Below, piece by piece: positions 92 through 34,304 of a stretch of DNA of 64,000 nt. Position numbers and translations under genes: made by a program. The stretch spans positions 952 through 64,951 of the forward strand of contig CAKPKQ010000005.1 in NCBI GenBank assembly GCA_934167305.1. Direction: 5' to 3'. How positions within the stretch are numbered: the first letter of the stretch is position 1; the number at the start of each line of letters is the position of its first letter. The notes beneath the pieces were generated by a model. That model made no database searches. It had not been told where the DNA came from and was given only the letters and a program-made list of their open reading frames with translations. The stretch is from an uncultured Clostridia bacterium. Lineage in GTDB: Bacteria; Bacillota; Clostridia; TANB77; CAG-508.

Positions 92-126
92 ACAAAAAAT
101 ATACAGTTTAAAATTAAACTGTATAT
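92..126 (-). terminator. Rho-independent terminator downstream of the 134..2035 gene
   Basis: Perfect 12-bp stem atatacagttta/taaactgtatat (99-126) with a 4-nt loop. On the minus strand it is followed by a T-run (plus-strand A-run 94-98). Confidence 0.7.
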
Positions 127-133
127 CTTATTT

Positions 134-2035
134 TTAATTTAAAATTGATATTTCTAATTGTTCTGCCCATTGTTTTTCTTGTTCATCATTTCCTGTATAA
201 TATAAAACACCATTTATAATAGAAAACTTATCACTTAATTTTTCATTTACTTCATCTGGATTTGTACCAATTAATGCAGTATCAATTACATCAAATGCAT
301 AACCAGCATCAGCTATATCGTTTTTTACTTTTTGTAAATTACTTGCTTTTTGTCTTAGTAATTGATCAATTTCCATAAGGTAATTTTGTGCATTTGTTAT
401 CGTTTGATCAGTTTTTAATGCATCACTTCTTGTTTTAACAGATATTCCTTTAATTCCTAATTTAACTGTATCTATCTGTTTAATATATGATAAATTTCCT
501 TGTAAAAGACTTCTATTTGCTACATTACAATACTTTAACTCTCTTTCAATTTCTTCAACTAATGCATCTATTTCATCTTGTATTGCTTGTCTGCCAGAAT
601 CTGTGTTAGTATCATTTGCTGCTTGTATTGTAAGTTCTTGCATTCTTAATAAACAACTGTCAACTTCATCAATTGCTCCTCTTGCAATTGTTATAAATCC
701 TATTGTTGTATTCCATGAATTTGCATTTGCTGTTGCTGTTTCTTTATCAGCTGTAGCTTCATATCTTTTATCTAACTGTTTTTCATATTCTTCTTCTATT
801 TTATTTTGTTTTGTTCCAAGTTTTTCTCTTTCTTTGCTTACTTTTTCTAATGCTGTTTGTATATTTGTAATAGCTTCGACTGGTTTTGTATAATCTATTT
901 TATCTGTACCATAAATTGATTTCCAATCCATACTATTTATAGAAACTGATACATTGTTCCCTTCATCATATGTAAAACCAATTTGTACATCCGCATTTAG
1001 GCTTCCATCTAGTAATGTTTTATTATCAAATTTTGTGTTTTTAACTATTGTGTTTATTTCATCTTTAAGTTGTTCCATTTCATTTTTTAACTTTTCTTTA
1101 TCAGAATCTGTTAAATTAGTACCGTTAGCCCATTGTGTCATAAGTTCATGCATTCTTTGTAACATTGAATGTGTTTCAACAAGTGCTCCTTCTGCCGTTT
1201 TTACCATTGATATGCCATCTCTTGCACTATATGCACCTGTAGCTAAAGTTACTTGTCTATAACTAAAAACATAGTTTGCTAAATCATATATATTACTATT
1301 TAATTCATCAATGTAATTAACTGTATGTTCTAATCTGTTTTGTTTTGCCCCAAGACTTGATCTTTGCTGTGAAACCTTTTCTAATGCTTTGTCAATCTTG
1401 TCTAAAGAATCTTGTGAAAGAGTATAATCAATATCATCTTCTCCATAAATGCCTTTCCATCCCATATTACTTATTGAAATTTCCATACTTCCCTGACTAT
1501 TGATTGAATCTCCAAGTTGAACTGTAGATTTATATGTTCCATCTAAAAGTTTTTGATTATCAAACATAGTAGTTTCTGCTATAAGGTTTATCTCATCTTT
1601 AAGTTGACTCATTTCATTTTTTATATTTTTAATATCTTCATCAGTAAAAGTATTATTTAAATATTGAGTCATAAGTTCTCTCATTCTTTGTAATATAGAA
1701 CTTGTTTCACCAAGTGCGCCTTCTGCTGTTTGTATTAAAGATATGTTGTCTTTTGCTTTCATTGCTGCTTTTTCATATGTTCTCATTTGAGCTTCTAATT
1801 TATCGCCTAGGTCTGTTATATGATTAACTTTAATTACTTGTTGACTTTTAGCACCTGCTTTTACATATGCTTTTTCTTTGTAACTTCCTGCTTCCATTTT
1901 AAATTTAGCTTCTTGTGATTTACTTACAAGCCCTTTGTTTGAAACCATAGTATTTATTGTTACTGATGCAAGTACAAGTAATACTATAATTGTTATTACT
2001 AAAGCTAATAAAGTTATACCTCTTTGTTCTTTCAT
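134..2035 (-). CDS. Pilin-like leader/hydrophobic helix fused to three flagellin D1-type modules (no D0), plus a conserved C-terminal YYTG domain
   Basis: N-terminus is MKEQRG|ITLLALVITIIVLLVLA. There are three copies of the flagellin N-type motif (SLIQTAEGALGETSSILQRMRELMTQ; SMVKTAEGALVETHSMLQRMHELMTQ; IARGAIDEVDSCLLRMQELTIQ). Flagellin C-type motifs are also present (SSLGAKQNRLEHTVNYIDEL; KLGTKQNKIEE). Confidence 0.8.
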   Translation of the reverse strand: MKEQRGITLLALVITIIVLLVLASVTINTMVSNKGLVSKSQEAKFKMEAGSYKEKAYVKAGAKSQQVIKVNHITDLGDKLEAQMRTYEKAAMKAKDNISLIQTAEGALGETSSILQRMRELMTQYLNNTFTDEDIKNIKNEMSQLKDEINLIAETTMFDNQKLLDGTYKSTVQLGDSINSQGSMEISISNMGWKGIYGEDDIDYTLSQDSLDKIDKALEKVSQQRSSLGAKQNRLEHTVNYIDELNSNIYDLANYVFSYRQVTLATGAYSARDGISMVKTAEGALVETHSMLQRMHELMTQWANGTNLTDSDKEKLKNEMEQLKDEINTIVKNTKFDNKTLLDGSLNADVQIGFTYDEGNNVSVSINSMDWKSIYGTDKIDYTKPVEAITNIQTALEKVSKEREKLGTKQNKIEEEYEKQLDKRYEATADKETATANANSWNTTIGFITIARGAIDEVDSCLLRMQELTIQAANDTNTDSGRQAIQDEIDALVEEIERELKYCNVANRSLLQGNLSYIKQIDTVKLGIKGISVKTRSDALKTDQTITNAQNYLMEIDQLLRQKASNLQKVKNDIADAGYAFDVIDTALIGTNPDEVNEKLSDKFSIINGVLYYTGNDEQEKQWAEQLEISILN

Positions 2036-2096
2036 TTTGTACCTCTTTTCCTCTTTTGAATTTTGTATTTTTAAATAATATCAAACTTAAATATTA

Positions 2097-3707
2097 TTAT
2101 TGTTTAATTTGTATATTAAGCTCTTGAGCCCATTTTTTTTCAAGTTCATTTGTACCTGTATAATATAAGATTCCATTTTCAATTGCGAATTTACTGTTTA
2201 TTACTCCATCTATGTCCATTTTTTCTGTTTGTTCTGATTTTTTACCATCATTTACTATATCAAATGCATAGCCAGGATCAGCTTTTTGGTCTTTTATTTC
2301 TTCCAAGCTATTCATTCGATTTCCTAAGTTTCCTTTAACCTTAGATATATATTCTATCGCATCACTTATTAGTTTTTTGGCTTTTCTTGCATCTTTTCTT
2401 GTTGAAACAGATAAATTAGATATACCTAGTTTATTTGTATCAATTTTTTCAACATATTGTAAATCCCCTTGTAAAAGATTTCTGTTTGCTACAATACAGC
2501 AAGAAAATTGTCTATCAAGTTCTTTGATTAGTTCATCTATTTCAAGTTGTATCACTTCTCTATCTTTATCTTCAAGTATGTCATTATCAGCTTGTACTGA
2601 AATTTCATACATTCTTTGTAACATAGAATGTGGTTCATTAAGTGCGCCTTCTGCTATTTGTACAAACCTCAATGTTGTTTCCCATGATGTTGCCATTTTT
2701 ATTGCATTATCTTCGCTATTATATCCTGTACTCAACTCTTCTTCTGCATTTAGGTCATTGTTTTGATATCTTTCCATTGCTTCTGCCATATTTGTATCAA
2801 ATATACTACTTTCTAACGATGTAACATTTTCACATACATTATCTATATATGAAATAGTATGTTCAAGTCTATTTAATAGTGCTCCTAATTTTTGCTTTTG
2901 TTTTAATACTTTTGCCATAGCATTTTTAATTTTTTCAGTAAGTTCTGTTAAATTTTTATAATCTATTTCATCTGCTCCATATAATTCTTTCCATTTTACA
3001 CTATCAATTGCAAATGTTATGCTTCCTTGTTTACTTGCTTCTCCTCCTAGTTGTATATCAAAGCTTTCTCCCTTTAATATGTTTATAGAATTGAATTGTG
3101 TTGTTTCTGCAGCTCTATCTATTTCTGTTTTAAGTTGATCCATTTCATATTTAAATGCATTTATCTCTTCTGCATCTGTCTTATATGTCATTTCAACAGC
3201 AACAATTTCGTACATTCTACTTAAAAAGCTTCTATCAGTTTCTCTAAGTTCTTTTTTTAGTTGTTCCATCTGAGCTTCTAATGCTTTTATATCTTCTTCT
3301 GTATTTGATTTATCTGTCATTGAAATTGCAATATATCTCATATTTTCTAATAATCCAATATCTGATTCGTTGTATATTTCATTAAGTGTTCCATCTGCAA
3401 CTTGTATAAGACTTATAGCATCTTCTGCATTGGTTGACCCTTGTGCAAGTGTCCTTATTTGACCTCTAAGTATTTCTCTTATTGCCCATATATGGTTATA
3501 ATCTGTTGTTTCTTGGCCTTGTGGAACTTTTGTAGGTTGCGTTCTTTCTTTATATGTAGTTGCTTCCATTTTAAACTTTGCTTCTTGTGATTTTCTTACA
3601 AGTCCATCATCTGAAACTATAGTATTAATTGTAACTGCCGCTAATATTAGCATTACAACAATTGTTATTACCAGAGCTAATAATGTTATTCCACTTTGTT
3701 TTTTCAT
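2097..3707 (-). CDS. Paralog of 134..2035: pilin-like leader/helix plus two flagellin D1-type modules and the same C-terminal domain
   Basis: N-terminus is MKKQSG|ITLLALVITIVVMLILA. Flagellin-type motifs: ISLIQVADGTLNE, VQIAEGALNEPHSMLQRMYEISVQ and KLGALLNRLEHTISYIDNVCENVTSLESSIFDTNMAEAME. The C-terminal tail (GILYYTGTNELEKKWAQEL) is shared with the neighbouring gene. Confidence 0.8.
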   Translation of the reverse strand: MKKQSGITLLALVITIVVMLILAAVTINTIVSDDGLVRKSQEAKFKMEATTYKERTQPTKVPQGQETTDYNHIWAIREILRGQIRTLAQGSTNAEDAISLIQVADGTLNEIYNESDIGLLENMRYIAISMTDKSNTEEDIKALEAQMEQLKKELRETDRSFLSRMYEIVAVEMTYKTDAEEINAFKYEMDQLKTEIDRAAETTQFNSINILKGESFDIQLGGEASKQGSITFAIDSVKWKELYGADEIDYKNLTELTEKIKNAMAKVLKQKQKLGALLNRLEHTISYIDNVCENVTSLESSIFDTNMAEAMERYQNNDLNAEEELSTGYNSEDNAIKMATSWETTLRFVQIAEGALNEPHSMLQRMYEISVQADNDILEDKDREVIQLEIDELIKELDRQFSCCIVANRNLLQGDLQYVEKIDTNKLGISNLSVSTRKDARKAKKLISDAIEYISKVKGNLGNRMNSLEEIKDQKADPGYAFDIVNDGKKSEQTEKMDIDGVINSKFAIENGILYYTGTNELEKKWAQELNIQIKQ

Positions 3708-3812
3708 TTTGCATTTCCTCTCTTTTTCTTTTGAATTATATATTGTAAGAATATCACAGTCATTTTATTTTTTCAATAGTTTTTTTTGCATTTTTATGCA
3801 TTTTTTACCAAC

Positions 3813-9763: not shown

Positions 9764-10128
9764 GGGGATGTATTTGGTTTCGACAGTATCCTAGAAGTAT
9801 TGATAGCGAGTAGTGGATTCTCACTTGGCCACTTAAATAATGTGAGAAATTAAAAATAAACGCTGATAATAGAGAATTAGCATACGCTGCCTAATTAAAA
9901 GGCGCGTCATCTTACTTTATGTGCCCACGCTTAAAGATTAAGGTGTCAAATTAGTGGGAAACGAAATTATTTTTAGTTATGAAAATAATGGGTATTTTTA
10001 AATAACTACCTTTTTAATAAATTTGTTTGTTGTGTTATTATTTAGGGAATCTTTACAATAGACTGCACTCGGAGAAGTTGATATGGAAAGAATATTGGAC
10101 AGGAGTTCGACTCTCCTCATCTCCACCA
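9764..10128 (+). ncRNA. ssrA: tmRNA (SsrA)
   Basis: The 5' end reads GGGGATGTATTTGGTTTCGACAG. The acceptor stem pairs with the 3' end CATCTCCACCA, including G3:U. A T-arm aggagTTCGACTctcct is present. The tag reading frame at 9862-9894 (gct gat aat aga gaa tta gca tac gct gcc taa) encodes ADNRELAYAA*. Confidence 0.93.
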
Positions 10129-10194
10129 ATTTTTTATAAAAAATACTTGCACATTATTTAGTTTTGTGCTAATATAATAAAGTATTAAATTTTT

Positions 10195-10269
10195 AGGGGT
10201 ATAGTGTTAATGGTAGCACATCGGTCTCCAAAACCGCTTGTGAGGGTTCGAGTCCTTCTACCCCTGCCA
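10195..10269 (+). tRNA. tRNA-Trp (anticodon CCA), CCA encoded
   Basis: Cloverleaf: AGGGGTA/TACCCCT acceptor stem, anticodon loop CTCCAAA, T-arm GAGGG-TTCGAGT-CCTTC. Close to the B. subtilis tRNA-Trp pattern. Confidence 0.9.
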
Positions 10270-13727: not shown

Positions 13728-14471
13728 TTATCTAGAAAGCCCCAAGGTGAATATTTTCCATACTATGGTTTGTAGTAATTCTGTTGGAACAAATATAGCT
13801 ATAAATGCACTTGCAACAATAAATGGTCCAAATGGTATATACTCATTTGCTCTTTTCTTTTTACTTGCAAGTATTGCTATACTTATAATAGCTGCTAATA
13901 AAAATGATAATACTGATACAATAATTGTATTGTTCATTCCTAGAAATAAACCTAATGCTCCCATTAGTTTTACGTCTCCAAACCCCATTGCCTCTTTTCC
14001 AGCTATGAAGCCCCCTATAACAGTTATAAGTAAAAATATTCCTCCGCCTATAAGCATTCCTATTATATTGTTAGTTAATACATTAAGTCCTAACCCTGTA
14101 TTTGAAATTACTTCTATAAACGTAAATGCTAAACCTGTTTCAAATATTGTTAGAGTTAATCTATTTGGTATAATTTGAAATTTTAAATCTATGCAAAATG
14201 CAATTAAAAGCATTGGTACTAAAAATAGATATTTAAACAACTCTATACTTACACCAAAGAAATACACTAAAGCTACAAACATTATTGCTGTTATACTCAT
14301 TAATATATAGTTTGGCTTAAGTGCTTTTAAATATTCTTTAAAAAAATCTTTTGTAAAAACTTTTTTATAGTCTGGCATACGTTTATTGCACCAATCTATA
14401 AACTGTCCTACTATTAAACCTATAATTCCAGCTATTACATAAATTAATATGTGTGTATCATTAATATACAT
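13728..14471 (-). CDS. A24 family prepilin peptidase (peptidase domain only)
   Basis: Polytopic membrane protein with both catalytic Asp motifs (FCIDLKFQIIPN and GFGDVKLMGALGLFLG) and PFGPF. There is no Cys-rich N-terminal methyltransferase-associated segment. Confidence 0.85.
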   Translation of the reverse strand: MYINDTHILIYVIAGIIGLIVGQFIDWCNKRMPDYKKVFTKDFFKEYLKALKPNYILMSITAIMFVALVYFFGVSIELFKYLFLVPMLLIAFCIDLKFQIIPNRLTLTIFETGLAFTFIEVISNTGLGLNVLTNNIIGMLIGGGIFLLITVIGGFIAGKEAMGFGDVKLMGALGLFLGMNNTIIVSVLSFLLAAIISIAILASKKKRANEYIPFGPFIVASAFIAIFVPTELLQTIVWKIFTLGLSR

Positions 14472-15684: not shown

Positions 15685-16368
15685 TTATTTACAAAATCTA
15701 TGATTTCCAATCGTTACAGTCATTGGTCTAGACCATATCCATTTATTTGTAGCCGTGTTTGGGTTAAAATAATAAATTGCGCCATAGCTAGGGTCCCATC
15801 CATTTAATGCATCTTGAGCTGCTTTCTTTGAAGTTGAATCAGGTGACATATTTATTTGACCATCAGATACAACATCAAATGCTCCTTTTTGATATATAAC
15901 TCCTGCTATTGTATTTGGAAACGAACTGCTTTTTACACGATTTAAAACAACTGCCGCAACTGCCACTTGCCCAGAATATGGCTCTCCTCTTGCCTCACCA
16001 TGTACTAACCTAGCTAATAAATCTAAATTAGTTGAATAGCTTGAACTCGAACTACTATTTGAAGAATTTATTCCCATTGCCTCTAATGTTTTTTTACCAG
16101 CTATTCCATCAACTGTTAACCCATTTTTAGATTGAAACCATCTTACTGCTTTTTGTGTTTGAGTTCCATATATTCCGTCTATACTTCCGCTGTAATAGCC
16201 CCATCTTTTTAATTTAGTTTGAATTTGCGTTACTTCATTTCCTCTAGAACCATACTTTGACAATGCGTCTACTTCATTATTTTTGAAAAATATATTATAT
16301 GAAATAAATATAGAGAAAGTTATTATAATAACAATCATTCCTATTAATGTTTTTTTATTTTTTTGCAT
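15685..16368 (-). CDS. Cell wall hydrolase (SleB/CwlJ-type catalytic domain) with a PG_binding_1 domain
   Basis: N-terminal TM. Peptidoglycan-binding repeat (GNEVTQIQTKLKRWGYYSGSIDGIYGTQTQKAVRWFQSKNGLTVDGIAG). Hydrolase_2-like C-terminus (LLARLVHGEARGEPY...VVLNRV...QKGAF). Confidence 0.85.
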   Translation of the reverse strand: MQKNKKTLIGMIVIIITFSIFISYNIFFKNNEVDALSKYGSRGNEVTQIQTKLKRWGYYSGSIDGIYGTQTQKAVRWFQSKNGLTVDGIAGKKTLEAMGINSSNSSSSSSYSTNLDLLARLVHGEARGEPYSGQVAVAAVVLNRVKSSSFPNTIAGVIYQKGAFDVVSDGQINMSPDSTSKKAAQDALNGWDPSYGAIYYFNPNTATNKWIWSRPMTVTIGNHRFCK

Positions 16369-32858: not shown

Positions 32859-33248
32859 ATGTTTAATCGTTATAATAGATGTTGTTGCCAAAATAAGTAC
32901 AATCCTGAAATTATAGAGTCATTGTGCAATGATGTTGGTACAACAGCAGATTATGCCCAAGACCCTGAAAATAGTTGTAGTTGTAGGCGTAATAATATGG
33001 TAAATACTAATTCATGCTCATGTGGTTTTGATGAAGAGCCTGTTTCTAATATGTTTCCATCTAACCCAATGTTAGGTCAAAGCTATGTCCCACTTCAAGA
33101 AATGAATAGAACTTTTACACCTTGCTGTGGTTTAAAAATGGGAACTATATTTCCTGAACTAGTAAGTCCATATATGCCAGGTCAAAGTATGGCTGAAAAT
33201 GACTATTTAAGAAGAAATAATGAAATTGGAGAGGGGTGTAATGGTTAA
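32859..33248 (+). CDS. cotJA: Spore coat-associated protein CotJA with a Cys-rich N-terminal extension
   Basis: YVPLQEMNRTFTPCCGLKMGTIFPELVSPY is the CotJA signature. Confidence 0.85.
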   Translation: MFNRYNRCCCQNKYNPEIIESLCNDVGTTADYAQDPENSCSCRRNNMVNTNSCSCGFDEEPVSNMFPSNPMLGQSYVPLQEMNRTFTPCCGLKMGTIFPELVSPYMPGQSMAENDYLRRNNEIGEGCNG

Positions 33249-33664
33249 TGGAAGATGAAAATAGAGATTGTAACTGCGGTGTAAATAAAATGGCTTGTAA
33301 AGATTGTAGTTATACTACTCAAGGCATTAATGCTGCATTTGGATATAATACTCCAGATATGATTGCAAATAATGTTAATAATAATTCGTGTGGTTGTGGT
33401 AATTCAGATGATCCTGATTGTAGTAGAGCTGATATGTTAAATAGCATTAAAAGTTTAAATTTTGCTGTTATTGAGTTAGGTTTATATTTAAATACTCATC
33501 CAGATGATGAAAAAGCTCTTTGTTTACACAGAGAATATTGCAGACAATTAAGAGATTTAAAAGATAAATATCAAAAAGTTTATGGACCTTTAAGCATTTA
33601 CTTCCCATGTAATAAGTGGAGATGGCTTGAAGAACCATGGCCTTGGGAAGGAGGAAATATTTAA
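33248..33664 (+). CDS. cotJB: Spore coat protein CotJB with a Cys-rich N-terminal extension
   Basis: LNFAVIELGLYLNTHPDDEKAL...YGPL...WPWE pattern. TAATG overlap with cotJA. Confidence 0.85.
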   Translation: MEDENRDCNCGVNKMACKDCSYTTQGINAAFGYNTPDMIANNVNNNSCGCGNSDDPDCSRADMLNSIKSLNFAVIELGLYLNTHPDDEKALCLHREYCRQLRDLKDKYQKVYGPLSIYFPCNKWRWLEEPWPWEGGNI

Positions 33665-33665
33665 T

Positions 33666-34304
33666 ATGTGGACTTATAATAAAGTATTGGAATACCCAGT
33701 TAATATAAAATGCCCAAATGCTAAACTTGCTAAATTTATTATTTCTCAATATGGTGGTCCTGATGGTGAGCTTGCCGCTTCCCTTCGTTATTTATCTCAA
33801 AAATTTGGTATGCCTGACCAAATTGCAAAGGCTACTTTAAATGATATAGGTACTGAAGAATTAGCACATTTAGAAATGGTTGGTACTATTGTCCATCAAT
33901 TAACTGAAGGCTTAAGTATTGAAGAAATTAAAGCTGCTGGTTTAGGCGCTTACTATACTGATCATGGTGTAGATATATATCCTCAATCTGCTGCTGGTGT
34001 GCCTTTCTCTGCAAATTGTCTTGCTTGTAAAGGTGACCCAATTGCTAATTTACAAGAAGACTTGGCTGCTGAACAAAAAGCCAGGGCAACTTATGAAAAA
34101 TTGATTGATTTATGTGCAGATGATCCTGATGTTGTTGATCCTCTTCGTTTCTTGCGAGAAAGAGAAGTTGTTCACTTCCAAAGATTTGGTGAAGCATTGA
34201 GAAATGTTCAAGATAAACTTGCTCAAAGAAGATTTTTTACAAGTGGAATGAATAATACAAATTGTATGAATAACAACACATCTGATTCTGATTGTGGAAT
34301 GTAA
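33666..34304 (+). CDS. cotJC: Spore coat protein CotJC (manganese catalase family)
   Basis: ISQYGGPDGELAASLRYLSQ and EELAHLEMV ferritin-like motifs. The ATG at 33666 follows AGGAGG. The ORF-track start at 33627 overlaps cotJB. Confidence 0.9.
   Translation: MWTYNKVLEYPVNIKCPNAKLAKFIISQYGGPDGELAASLRYLSQKFGMPDQIAKATLNDIGTEELAHLEMVGTIVHQLTEGLSIEEIKAAGLGAYYTDHGVDIYPQSAAGVPFSANCLACKGDPIANLQEDLAAEQKARATYEKLIDLCADDPDVVDPLRFLREREVVHFQRFGEALRNVQDKLAQRRFFTSGMNNTNCMNNNTSDSDCGM

Follow-up and report, generated by a model that had tools for sequence, protein, structure and literature searches.

Flagellin D1 modules behind a prepilin-like leader and helix in a tandem gene pair of an uncultured gut Clostridia bacterium

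What are the core domains of flagellin doing behind a membrane leader that resembles those of type IV prepilins? The question is raised by two neighboring open reading frames, ORF-A and ORF-B, in a 64,000-nt stretch of an uncultured Clostridia bacterium (GenBank assembly GCA_934167305.1, contig CAKPKQ010000005.1, positions 952 to 64,951), which is referred to in its full length as the window; residues are numbered in amino acids (aa) of the respective encoded protein. ORF-B lies upstream of ORF-A in tandem, both on the minus strand. The original prediction, made from the nucleotide sequence without database searches, had placed the pair correctly at 134-3707, with the MKEQRG gene corresponding to ORF-A (2035..134) and the MKKQSG gene to ORF-B (3707..2097), while its description of the initial ~150 nt of both genes as near-identical was overstated, as they exhibit 80% identity (120/150). 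Each protein comprises an N-terminal anchor module, two or three flagellin D1 copies and a small conserved C-terminal domain (Table 1). We suggest, with a probability of roughly 0.6, that ORF-A and ORF-B are Sec-inserted, N-terminally anchored, pilin-like surface proteins, which carry D1 bundles as the ectodomain and may be cleaved by a peptidase of the A24 family.

The flagellin relationship was identified with high scores. The Pfam profile Flagellin_N matches three stretches in each protein (164 bits, 2.2e-48 for ORF-A and 85 bits, 8.6e-24 for ORF-B). In ORF-A the best match extends from position 48 of the 139-position profile and in ORF-B from position 67, up to positions 135-138, and profile positions 1-47 are never matched in either ORF, hence the N-terminal D0 segment (ND0), the carrier of the type III export signal, is absent. 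The Flagellin_C profile is matched with 36 bits (ORF-A) and 35 bits (ORF-B), with the coverage of positions 1-39 or 2-63 of 86. Nothing matches beyond position 63, the chains ending instead in an unrelated mini-domain, and since the coverage stops at 39 or 63 the C-terminal D0 segment (CD0), which serves the filament core and the binding of FliS, is absent as well. All curated NCBIfam models of flagellin and FlgL were also matched, far below their cutoffs (the best one with 237.6 bits versus 531). The blastp comparison with an ordinary flagellin revealed that the homology begins at flagellin residue 25, i.e. at the end of ND0, and placed the ND1 modules of ORF-A at aa 59-194 (with CD1 extending to ~258), 264-374 and 432-535, and two further modules in ORF-B, in agreement with the three and two modules counted originally. 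The first module of ORF-B reaches the CD1/CD0 junction (…FDTNMAEAMERYQNN). Pfam counts three Flagellin_N stretches in ORF-B because of an internal 50-aa duplication of ND1 (aa ~110-175), which is present in the 536-aa alleles (the window, P0014 and P0015) and absent from the 485-aa alleles (P0010-P0013); thus, the ORF-B locus is polymorphic between strains.

The structure prediction leads to the same assignment. The AlphaFold model of ORF-B (pLDDT, the predicted local distance difference test score, 74.6; pTM, the predicted template modelling score, 0.64) exhibits helical bundles with short hairpins. All 40 Foldseek matches of this model at E ≤ 0.001 are flagellins, and the best local fit is 5gy2_C, the TLR5-bound D1 fragment of B. 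subtilis flagellin (template modelling score 0.84, root-mean-square deviation 2.7 Å). The limitation of the Pfam and NCBIfam matches to D1, the start of the blastp alignment at residue 25 and the structural matches to flagellins only thus bear out the original claim of flagellin D1 without D0.

The N-terminal module is of a different kind. Both proteins begin with M-K-x-Q-x-G, followed by ~25 uncharged residues and then by a conserved helix (…GLV.KSQEAKFKMEA). The leader ending in Gly and the lack of Glu at position +5 had been noticed before and were found in both ORFs, with Ala at +5, and the hydrophobic stretch amounts to ~25 residues; in some homologs the leader ends in Ala. The PilFind program asks for an uncharged stretch of no fewer than 14 residues directly behind the cleavage site; here ~25 such residues form a single membrane helix. 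The following helix (aa 32-56) is the most conserved region, with the mean pairwise identity of 72%. It is not a remnant of flagellin ND0, as it belongs to the shared N-terminal module, and the fusion point therefore lies at around residue 57. The weak NCBIfam matches of this region are mostly N-termini of pilins and pseudopilins (GspG, PilA, PpdD, PpdA), aligned in register. Together with the score of the leader consensus against the Pfam N_methyl profile (PF07963) and the A24 peptidase gene in the window, both described below, these matches support the prepilin-like character of the leader and the helix proposed originally.

The same leader is not confined to the flagellin fusions. A 52-position profile was built from three leaders of the window, namely those of ORF-A, ORF-B and a third, 511-aa protein, and used in the exhaustive search of 1.84 billion representative proteins. 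It matched 3,578 proteins at E ≤ 1e-10, and at E ≤ 1e-3 as many as 28,179, a number which may take in generic hydrophobic helices; both are counts of 50%-identity cluster representatives. The profile follows the pattern K-G-I-T-L-[IVL]-A-L-V-[IV]-T-I…, then G-x-x-G…K-[AS]-Q-E-A-K. Among the best 146 matches, Gly at -1 and Ile at +1 are each found in 145 and Ala at +5 in 140, and a stretch of ~45 residues hardly varies (KGITLIALVITIIVLLILAGV.I…GDNGI..KAQEAK.K.E), the remainder of these proteins being unrelated. The scores of P0005 (ORF-A type, 107.5 bits), P0011 (ORF-B type, 105.7 bits) and P0123 (the cluster of the third window protein, 78 bits) are circular, as the sequences of the three window proteins had served to build the profile; independent evidence for the class comes from thousands of further proteins with scores of 67-82 bits. 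The cargoes identified among 67 members (those of at least 200 aa) comprise BspA-type leucine-rich repeats, DUF285, Big_2, dockerin, GLUG, FGE-sulfatase, MucBP and PT-HINT domains. N_methyl is weakly matched by 46 of these 67; the natural members obtain 13-20 bits, while the class consensus obtains 22.4 bits and passes the cutoff of 21.2. As unrelated surface proteins by the thousand share the leader, flagellin is one of its many cargoes. PilFind, which for Gram-positive pilins uses the rule [GAS]-x4-[DE] and a length of <350 aa, would miss the whole class on account of both requirements. A word-indexed homolog search with the 57-aa leader returned 3 candidates; such a search is unsuited to a short hydrophobic query and was replaced by the profile search. 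A literature search with the leader as a sequence string found nothing relevant. The 'short' leader proteins were considered as candidates for major pilins and rejected, as most of them are fragments on contigs <1 kb.

The third leader-class protein of the window adjoins mreB, the product of which falls into a 90%-identity cluster shared with Clostridium sp. CAG:567. Homologs of the third protein with at least 70% identity keep the leader, and more distant GLUG proteins possess ordinary signal peptides or lipoprotein signals. Elsewhere, a 406-aa member of the leader class (P0193, L008 10001-11221) is encoded beside prophage genes (Sipho_Gp37, Prophage_tail, Bro-N/ANT).

A peptidase that could process such leaders is encoded in the window, so that three leader-class proteins and an A24 peptidase are found within the same 64 kb. 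The enzyme possesses both catalytic Asp motifs (…CIDLKFQIIPN… and …GFGDVKL…), and its gene belongs to a housekeeping run of HAD phosphatase, peptidase, pepP and efp genes, between the HAD-phosphatase gene, the end of which is overlapped, and pepP-efp, and has no pilus genes next to it. The DiS-P-DiS domain was searched for in this protein and gave no match, which identifies it as a short, TadV-like form, and N-methylation is therefore not expected. Comparison of the peptidase with the sequences in the PDB yielded no meaningful match. In other genomes, the neighbors of the leader-class genes examined are housekeeping or prophage genes only.

The search for the whole architecture among 5.8 billion proteins retrieved 20 clusters at ≥317 bits, the next matches being ordinary flagellins at ~128 bits, and two further members (P0202 and L014) extend this very small family to ~22 clusters, which come from metagenomes of the human gut. 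None of the 20 homolog clusters has a name, an NCBI source or a UniRef source. The leader, the SQEAKFKMEA segment and the conserved C-terminus are present in all family members. The latter is a mini-domain of ~60 aa which closes every chain (…D.GYAFD……KF.I.NG.LYYTG..E.EKKWAQ.L.I); the C-terminal 100 aa were modelled at pLDDT ~85, and the Foldseek search with this region found no match in the PDB at E ≤ 0.001. The scan of 185,579 species genomes identified one family member, in an uncultured Clostridia metagenome-assembled genome from Hadza gut (an NCBI-derived GTDB contig), and the metagenome scan revealed seven family loci, two of them labelled human gut in the contig names. None was found in the scan of viral contigs, and hence the fusion family is not phage-borne. 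The genomic context of the fusion genes is not conserved, since in the other lineage a single fusion gene is located between murJ and ylxM-ffh.

Selection was estimated by comparison of the window with the strain represented by contig L001. The neighboring genes upp and aldose epimerase exhibit dN = 0 and dS of 0.02-0.05 (nonsynonymous and synonymous divergence, respectively), while ORF-A and ORF-B have diverged faster, with dN ~0.03, dS of 0.09-0.12 and their ratio omega of ~0.3. Constraint is strongest over the first 56 and the last 63 aa (omega 0.07-0.28), compared to 0.3-0.57 in the D1 modules, and between distant family members the N-terminal module retains 65-72% identity and the first D1 module 29-44%. 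Such a pattern of constraint is that of a variable exposed middle between conserved functional ends.

ORF-A and ORF-B are real genes. Apart from the sample of the window itself, six samples yielded contigs with the same pair at equal lengths (L001, L002, L003, L009, L010 and a further 5,921-bp contig with P0001 and P0015). The notion that the fusion is an artefact of assembly or gene calling, or a pseudogene, might draw on the frameshifted, leaderless copy on the related contig L011, but it is already refuted by the intact full-length copies in many independent assemblies of different samples, with their lengths kept, dN/dS of ~0.3 and a ribosome-binding site own to each gene, and by the complete architecture common to the ~22 clusters. 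It is also very unlikely that the proteins are genuine flagellar components, i.e. unusual flagellins or FlgL-type hook-associated proteins exported by the type III apparatus, as the strong Flagellin_N and Flagellin_C matches and the sub-threshold matches to FlgL models might suggest. The N-terminus is a hydrophobic membrane helix, the NCBIfam flagellin and FlgL models all remain far under their cutoffs, no flagellar genes were found in the 64-kb window or its 10-kb flanks, and the position of the gene of the other lineage, between murJ and ylxM-ffh, is no more flagellar. Proteins without D0 can neither use the flagellar type III export nor pack in the flagellar filament, and as they lack D0 and the type III export signal, with no flagellar genes in the window and its flanks, ORF-A and ORF-B cannot be flagellar subunits.

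A more serious, though in our opinion still rather doubtful, alternative to a pilin-like surface protein is an uncleaved bitopic signal-anchor protein, with no A24 processing and no filament, whose D1 ectodomain would be tethered beneath the cell wall. Some of the observations that weigh against the pilin-like nature of the two proteins agree with it. Of the features that define pilins, Glu at +5, the globular head and nearby machinery genes fail here: the residue at +5 is Ala in both ORFs in place of the required Glu or Asp, neither of which occurs at this position in any of the best 146 leader-class matches, so that the PilFind motif fails as well; the ORF-B model has no pilin globular head, and in it nothing but a disordered linker (aa 56-70) separates the helix from D1; and no pilB, pilC, pilM, com or tad genes were found in the window, its 10-kb flanks or five other leader-class loci. 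The N_methyl scores of the two proteins (17.4 and 13.2 bits) are below the cutoff, the larger of the leader-class counts may be inflated by generic helices, and the A24 peptidase could instead serve separate canonical pilins. At the loci examined, the leader-class genes are dispersed among housekeeping genes and never beside pilus machinery; the only NCBI-named member is annotated as a 'hypothetical protein', and no pilin annotation was found among the names of the members. A passive anchor, however, has no need of a near-invariant Gly(-1)-Ile-Thr-Leu motif and of a 45-aa stretch conserved over unrelated ectodomains; the class consensus passes the N_methyl cutoff, the weak matches are mostly pilin N-termini in register, and an A24 peptidase in which both catalytic Asp motifs are present is encoded in the window. 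The near-invariant G-ITL motif, the similarity to N_methyl and GspG and the presence of the peptidase gene make class III processing by the A24 peptidase plausible, as judged from sequence.

The pilin-like, D1-bearing surface protein, which we prefer, could have arisen and function as follows. A pilin-like module, consisting of a basic leader of 6 residues with Gly at its end, a ~25-residue hydrophobic helix and a conserved amphipathic helix, would have been fused at around residue 57 to two or three D1 bundles from a flagellin of the Bacillota type, with the loss of the first ~24 residues (ND0) and of the C-terminal helix (CD0) of the latter. The product would be inserted by Sec and the signal recognition particle with its N-terminus inside, and MKKQSG or MKEQRG would probably be removed at the Gly-Ile bond by the A24 peptidase encoded at 14471..13728. 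The hydrophobic helix may then retain the protein in the membrane or feed an assembly similar to type IV filaments, while the tandem D1 bundles may act as a rigid, fast-evolving rod, which bears the C-terminal domain, together with the D1 surfaces of the rod itself, through and beyond the cell wall.

Similar leaders are known from Archaea, where class III leaders without Glu at +5 are found in archaellins and in the sugar-binding proteins of the Sulfolobus 'bindosome', on many non-pilin ectodomains. These proteins are processed by a short A24 peptidase without the methyltransferase domain and their genes are often scattered, but the assembly ATPase and platform proteins of these systems are known, and the ectodomains are unrelated to bacterial flagellin. 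The window proteins resemble them in that Glu is missing at +5 and the A24 peptidase is short, and differ in that no assembly ATPase or platform protein was found in the window, its flanks or the other loci examined. The presence of the Peptidase_A24 domain only is also typical of TadV from the Tad/Flp system, but the Flp pilins are of ~60 aa and exhibit Glu5-Tyr6, and no tad genes occur nearby. With bacterial flagellin (B. subtilis Hag, Salmonella FliC) the proteins share the ND1a and ND1b helices, the beta-hairpin, the CD1 helix and the LQRxxEL and QNRLEHT motifs, whereas ND0 and CD0 are missing, D1 is repeated two or three times per chain, the N-terminus is a membrane helix and the flagellar gene context is lacking. 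The flagellin scaffold has also been repurposed or decorated in the cell-surface flagellin of Sphingomonas A1 (PDB 3k8v), in flagellinolysin and in flagellin P0163, but D0 and flagellar export are retained in each of them, while here the export route has been replaced. P0163 itself (815 aa, NCBI) is an ordinary flagellin with D0 intact and a large GLUG-repeat domain in the hypervariable region, a cargo of the same type as that of the third leader-class protein of the window.

The closest known concept is that of the 'modular pilin'. The survey of Raynaud et al. 2021 (PMC8179133) lists 264 architectures in which IPR012902 is combined with another domain, for instance the Streptococcus sanguinis pilins PilB, which carries a vWA module, and PilC, which carries a lectin module. 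IPR012902-GLUG is among them and matches the architecture of the third leader-bearing protein of the window, while no flagellin domain is listed (PMC8179133). The modular pilins resemble the proteins described here in that a class-III-type leader and a hydrophobic helix bear a grafted domain foreign to pilus biology; in our case, however, Glu at +5 is missing, the helix leads to the cargo without an intervening pilin globular module, the genes are located outside of a pil locus and the cargo is flagellin D1. It is this cargo that appears to be unprecedented, on a leader class that is widespread and unannotated. We found nothing relevant on flagellins that lack D0 or are anchored in the membrane in the literature, and no earlier case of flagellin D1 outside of proteins exported by the flagellar type III apparatus as far as our literature and database searches reached. 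Given also its absence from the 264 architectures and the lack of names in the 20 homolog clusters, flagellin D1 on a pilin-like anchor appears to be an undescribed combination, as had been supposed originally.

One potential function can be added to the above explanation without changing the architecture: the displayed D1 arrays may be D0-less ligands of the host TLR5, either for adhesion or in the role of a 'silent' decoy that signals weakly. In B. subtilis flagellin the hot-spot residues for TLR5 are R89, L93, I111 and E114, and flagellin without D0 signals 269-1355-fold more weakly (PMC5247705), so a surface D1 array could bind TLR5 with little activation. By reading of the sequences, all four residues are kept in module 1 of ORF-A (LQRMRELMTQ…IKNEM) and in module 3 (LLRMQELTIQ…IQDEI), three of the four in module 2, where I111 is replaced by Leu, and they are largely kept in the terminal module of ORF-B (LQRMYEISVQ…IQLEI). 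The closest structural match is the TLR5-bound D1 fragment, and the organism inhabits the human gut. The same residues, however, make contacts within flagellin itself and may be kept for folding only, and constraint on the proteins is weakest in the D1 modules. TLR5 binding by the displayed D1 is thus a hypothesis, which we regard as improbable. A bolder extension, on which we would place equally little weight, is that the GITLxA leader class represents a very widespread, uncharacterized surface-assembly system of gut Clostridia, archaeal-like in the lack of Glu at +5 and in the short A24 peptidase, with the D1 fusions as its filament or tip subunits, in which D1 would form an outer layer on a pilin-style core and present D0-less, TLR5-binding, poorly signalling surfaces to the human host.

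The gene pair resides in chromosomal DNA with the G+C content of 28%, in which genes readable as upp, recG, efp, clpXP, tig, lysS and cotJ and a gene for tmRNA were recognized. It is flanked by upp/uraA upstream and by tkt, ftsEX, genes for two PcsB-like peptidases and ctpB downstream. With a promoter-like site before ORF-B and a hairpin with a T-run after ORF-A, the pair looks like a two-gene operon. The hairpin was not called by the terminator scan because its stem has fewer than 3 G-C pairs. The sigma-70 scan upstream of ORF-B performed no better than chance in AT-rich DNA, and no sigma-28-type promoter was seen there in a by-eye search.

Several other features deserve mention. On contig L011 (1660-2820), an ORF-B homolog without the leader and with a frameshifted C-terminus lies directly upstream of an intact ORF-A homolog and represents either a decayed copy or an assembly chimera. 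The tmRNA gene of the window, with the tag peptide ADNRELAYAA, is followed by tRNA-Trp (9764-10269, plus strand). A three-gene block at 32859-34304 (plus strand) reads like the spore-coat genes cotJA, cotJB and cotJC and a SleB-like hydrolase is encoded at 15685-16368 (minus strand), which together point to an endospore-forming host. Past the window's right end, L017 (748-6459) encodes a protein of 1,903 aa that contains a ParB_N domain, adjoins a LysM protein and may be a part of a mobile element.

Table 1. Coordinates of the tandem gene pair, its modules and related features in the window
Feature	Position	Strand	Description or basis
ORF-B	2097..3707	-	536 aa: anchor module, D1 module with ND1 duplication, divergent terminal D1, C-terminal mini-domain
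ORF-B basic leader, MKKQSG	3690..3707	-	putative A24 cleavage site after Gly6
ORF-B hydrophobic helix, aa 7-31 (ITLLALVITIVVMLILAAVTINTIV), Ala at +5	3615..3689	-	sequence, model, leader class
ORF-B conserved post-membrane helix, aa 32-56 (…DDGLVRKSQEAKFKMEA…)	3540..3614	-	part of shared module
ORF-B D1 module 1, aa 73-305	2793..3491	-	ND1 helices with 50-aa duplication, beta-hairpin, CD1 helix
ORF-B terminal divergent D1 module, aa 339-472	2292..2693	-	Pfam, NCBIfam, model, blastp
ORF-B family-specific C-terminal region, aa 473-536 (…KFAIENGILYYTGTNELEKKWAQELNIQI)	2100..2291	-	disordered linker, then beta-beta-beta-alpha-beta mini-domain; omega 0.07
Promoter-like hexamers upstream of ORF-B; ribosome-binding site GAGAGGAAA before ATG	3735..3776	-	consensus matches, at a frequency not above chance in AT-rich DNA
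ORF-A	134..2035	-	633 aa: anchor module, three D1 modules (last divergent), C-terminal mini-domain
ORF-A N-terminal module, aa 1-56: MKEQRG, hydrophobic helix, conserved post-membrane helix	1868..2035	-	sequence, leader profile
ORF-A D1 module 1, aa 59-258	1262..1861	-	Pfam and blastp; homology from flagellin residue 25
ORF-A D1 module 2, aa 264-430	746..1246	-	Pfam and blastp
ORF-A terminal divergent D1 module, aa 432-570	326..742	-	Pfam and blastp
ORF-A C-terminal conserved region, aa 571-633	137..325	-	family alignment, omega
AT-rich hairpin followed by T-run, downstream of ORF-A	93..126	-	read from sequence; probable terminator
A24 prepilin peptidase, 247 aa	13728..14471	-	full Peptidase_A24 profile, 67 bits versus cutoff 26.5
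Third leader-class protein (…ETKGITLVALIITIVVLLLL…), 511 aa	49847..51382	-	GLUG / M26_N (Peptidase_M26_N) type cargo

The transfer of D1 to a presumably Sec-dependent, pilin-like anchor and its multiplication there represent a clear case of the reuse of a flagellar core domain outside of the flagellum. The leader class that carries it is a large unannotated module, apparently used by Clostridia of the human gut for the display of adhesin-type domains, and it is missed by the current pilin predictors because it lacks Glu at +5; as such, it may merit a separate study. Should the bolder extension outlined above be true, a pilin-style helical core with an outer layer of D1 would be the bacterial mirror image of the archaellum. 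And if the D1 arrays engage TLR5 without D0, this would bear on the way in which commensal Clostridia face the sensing of flagellin by their host.

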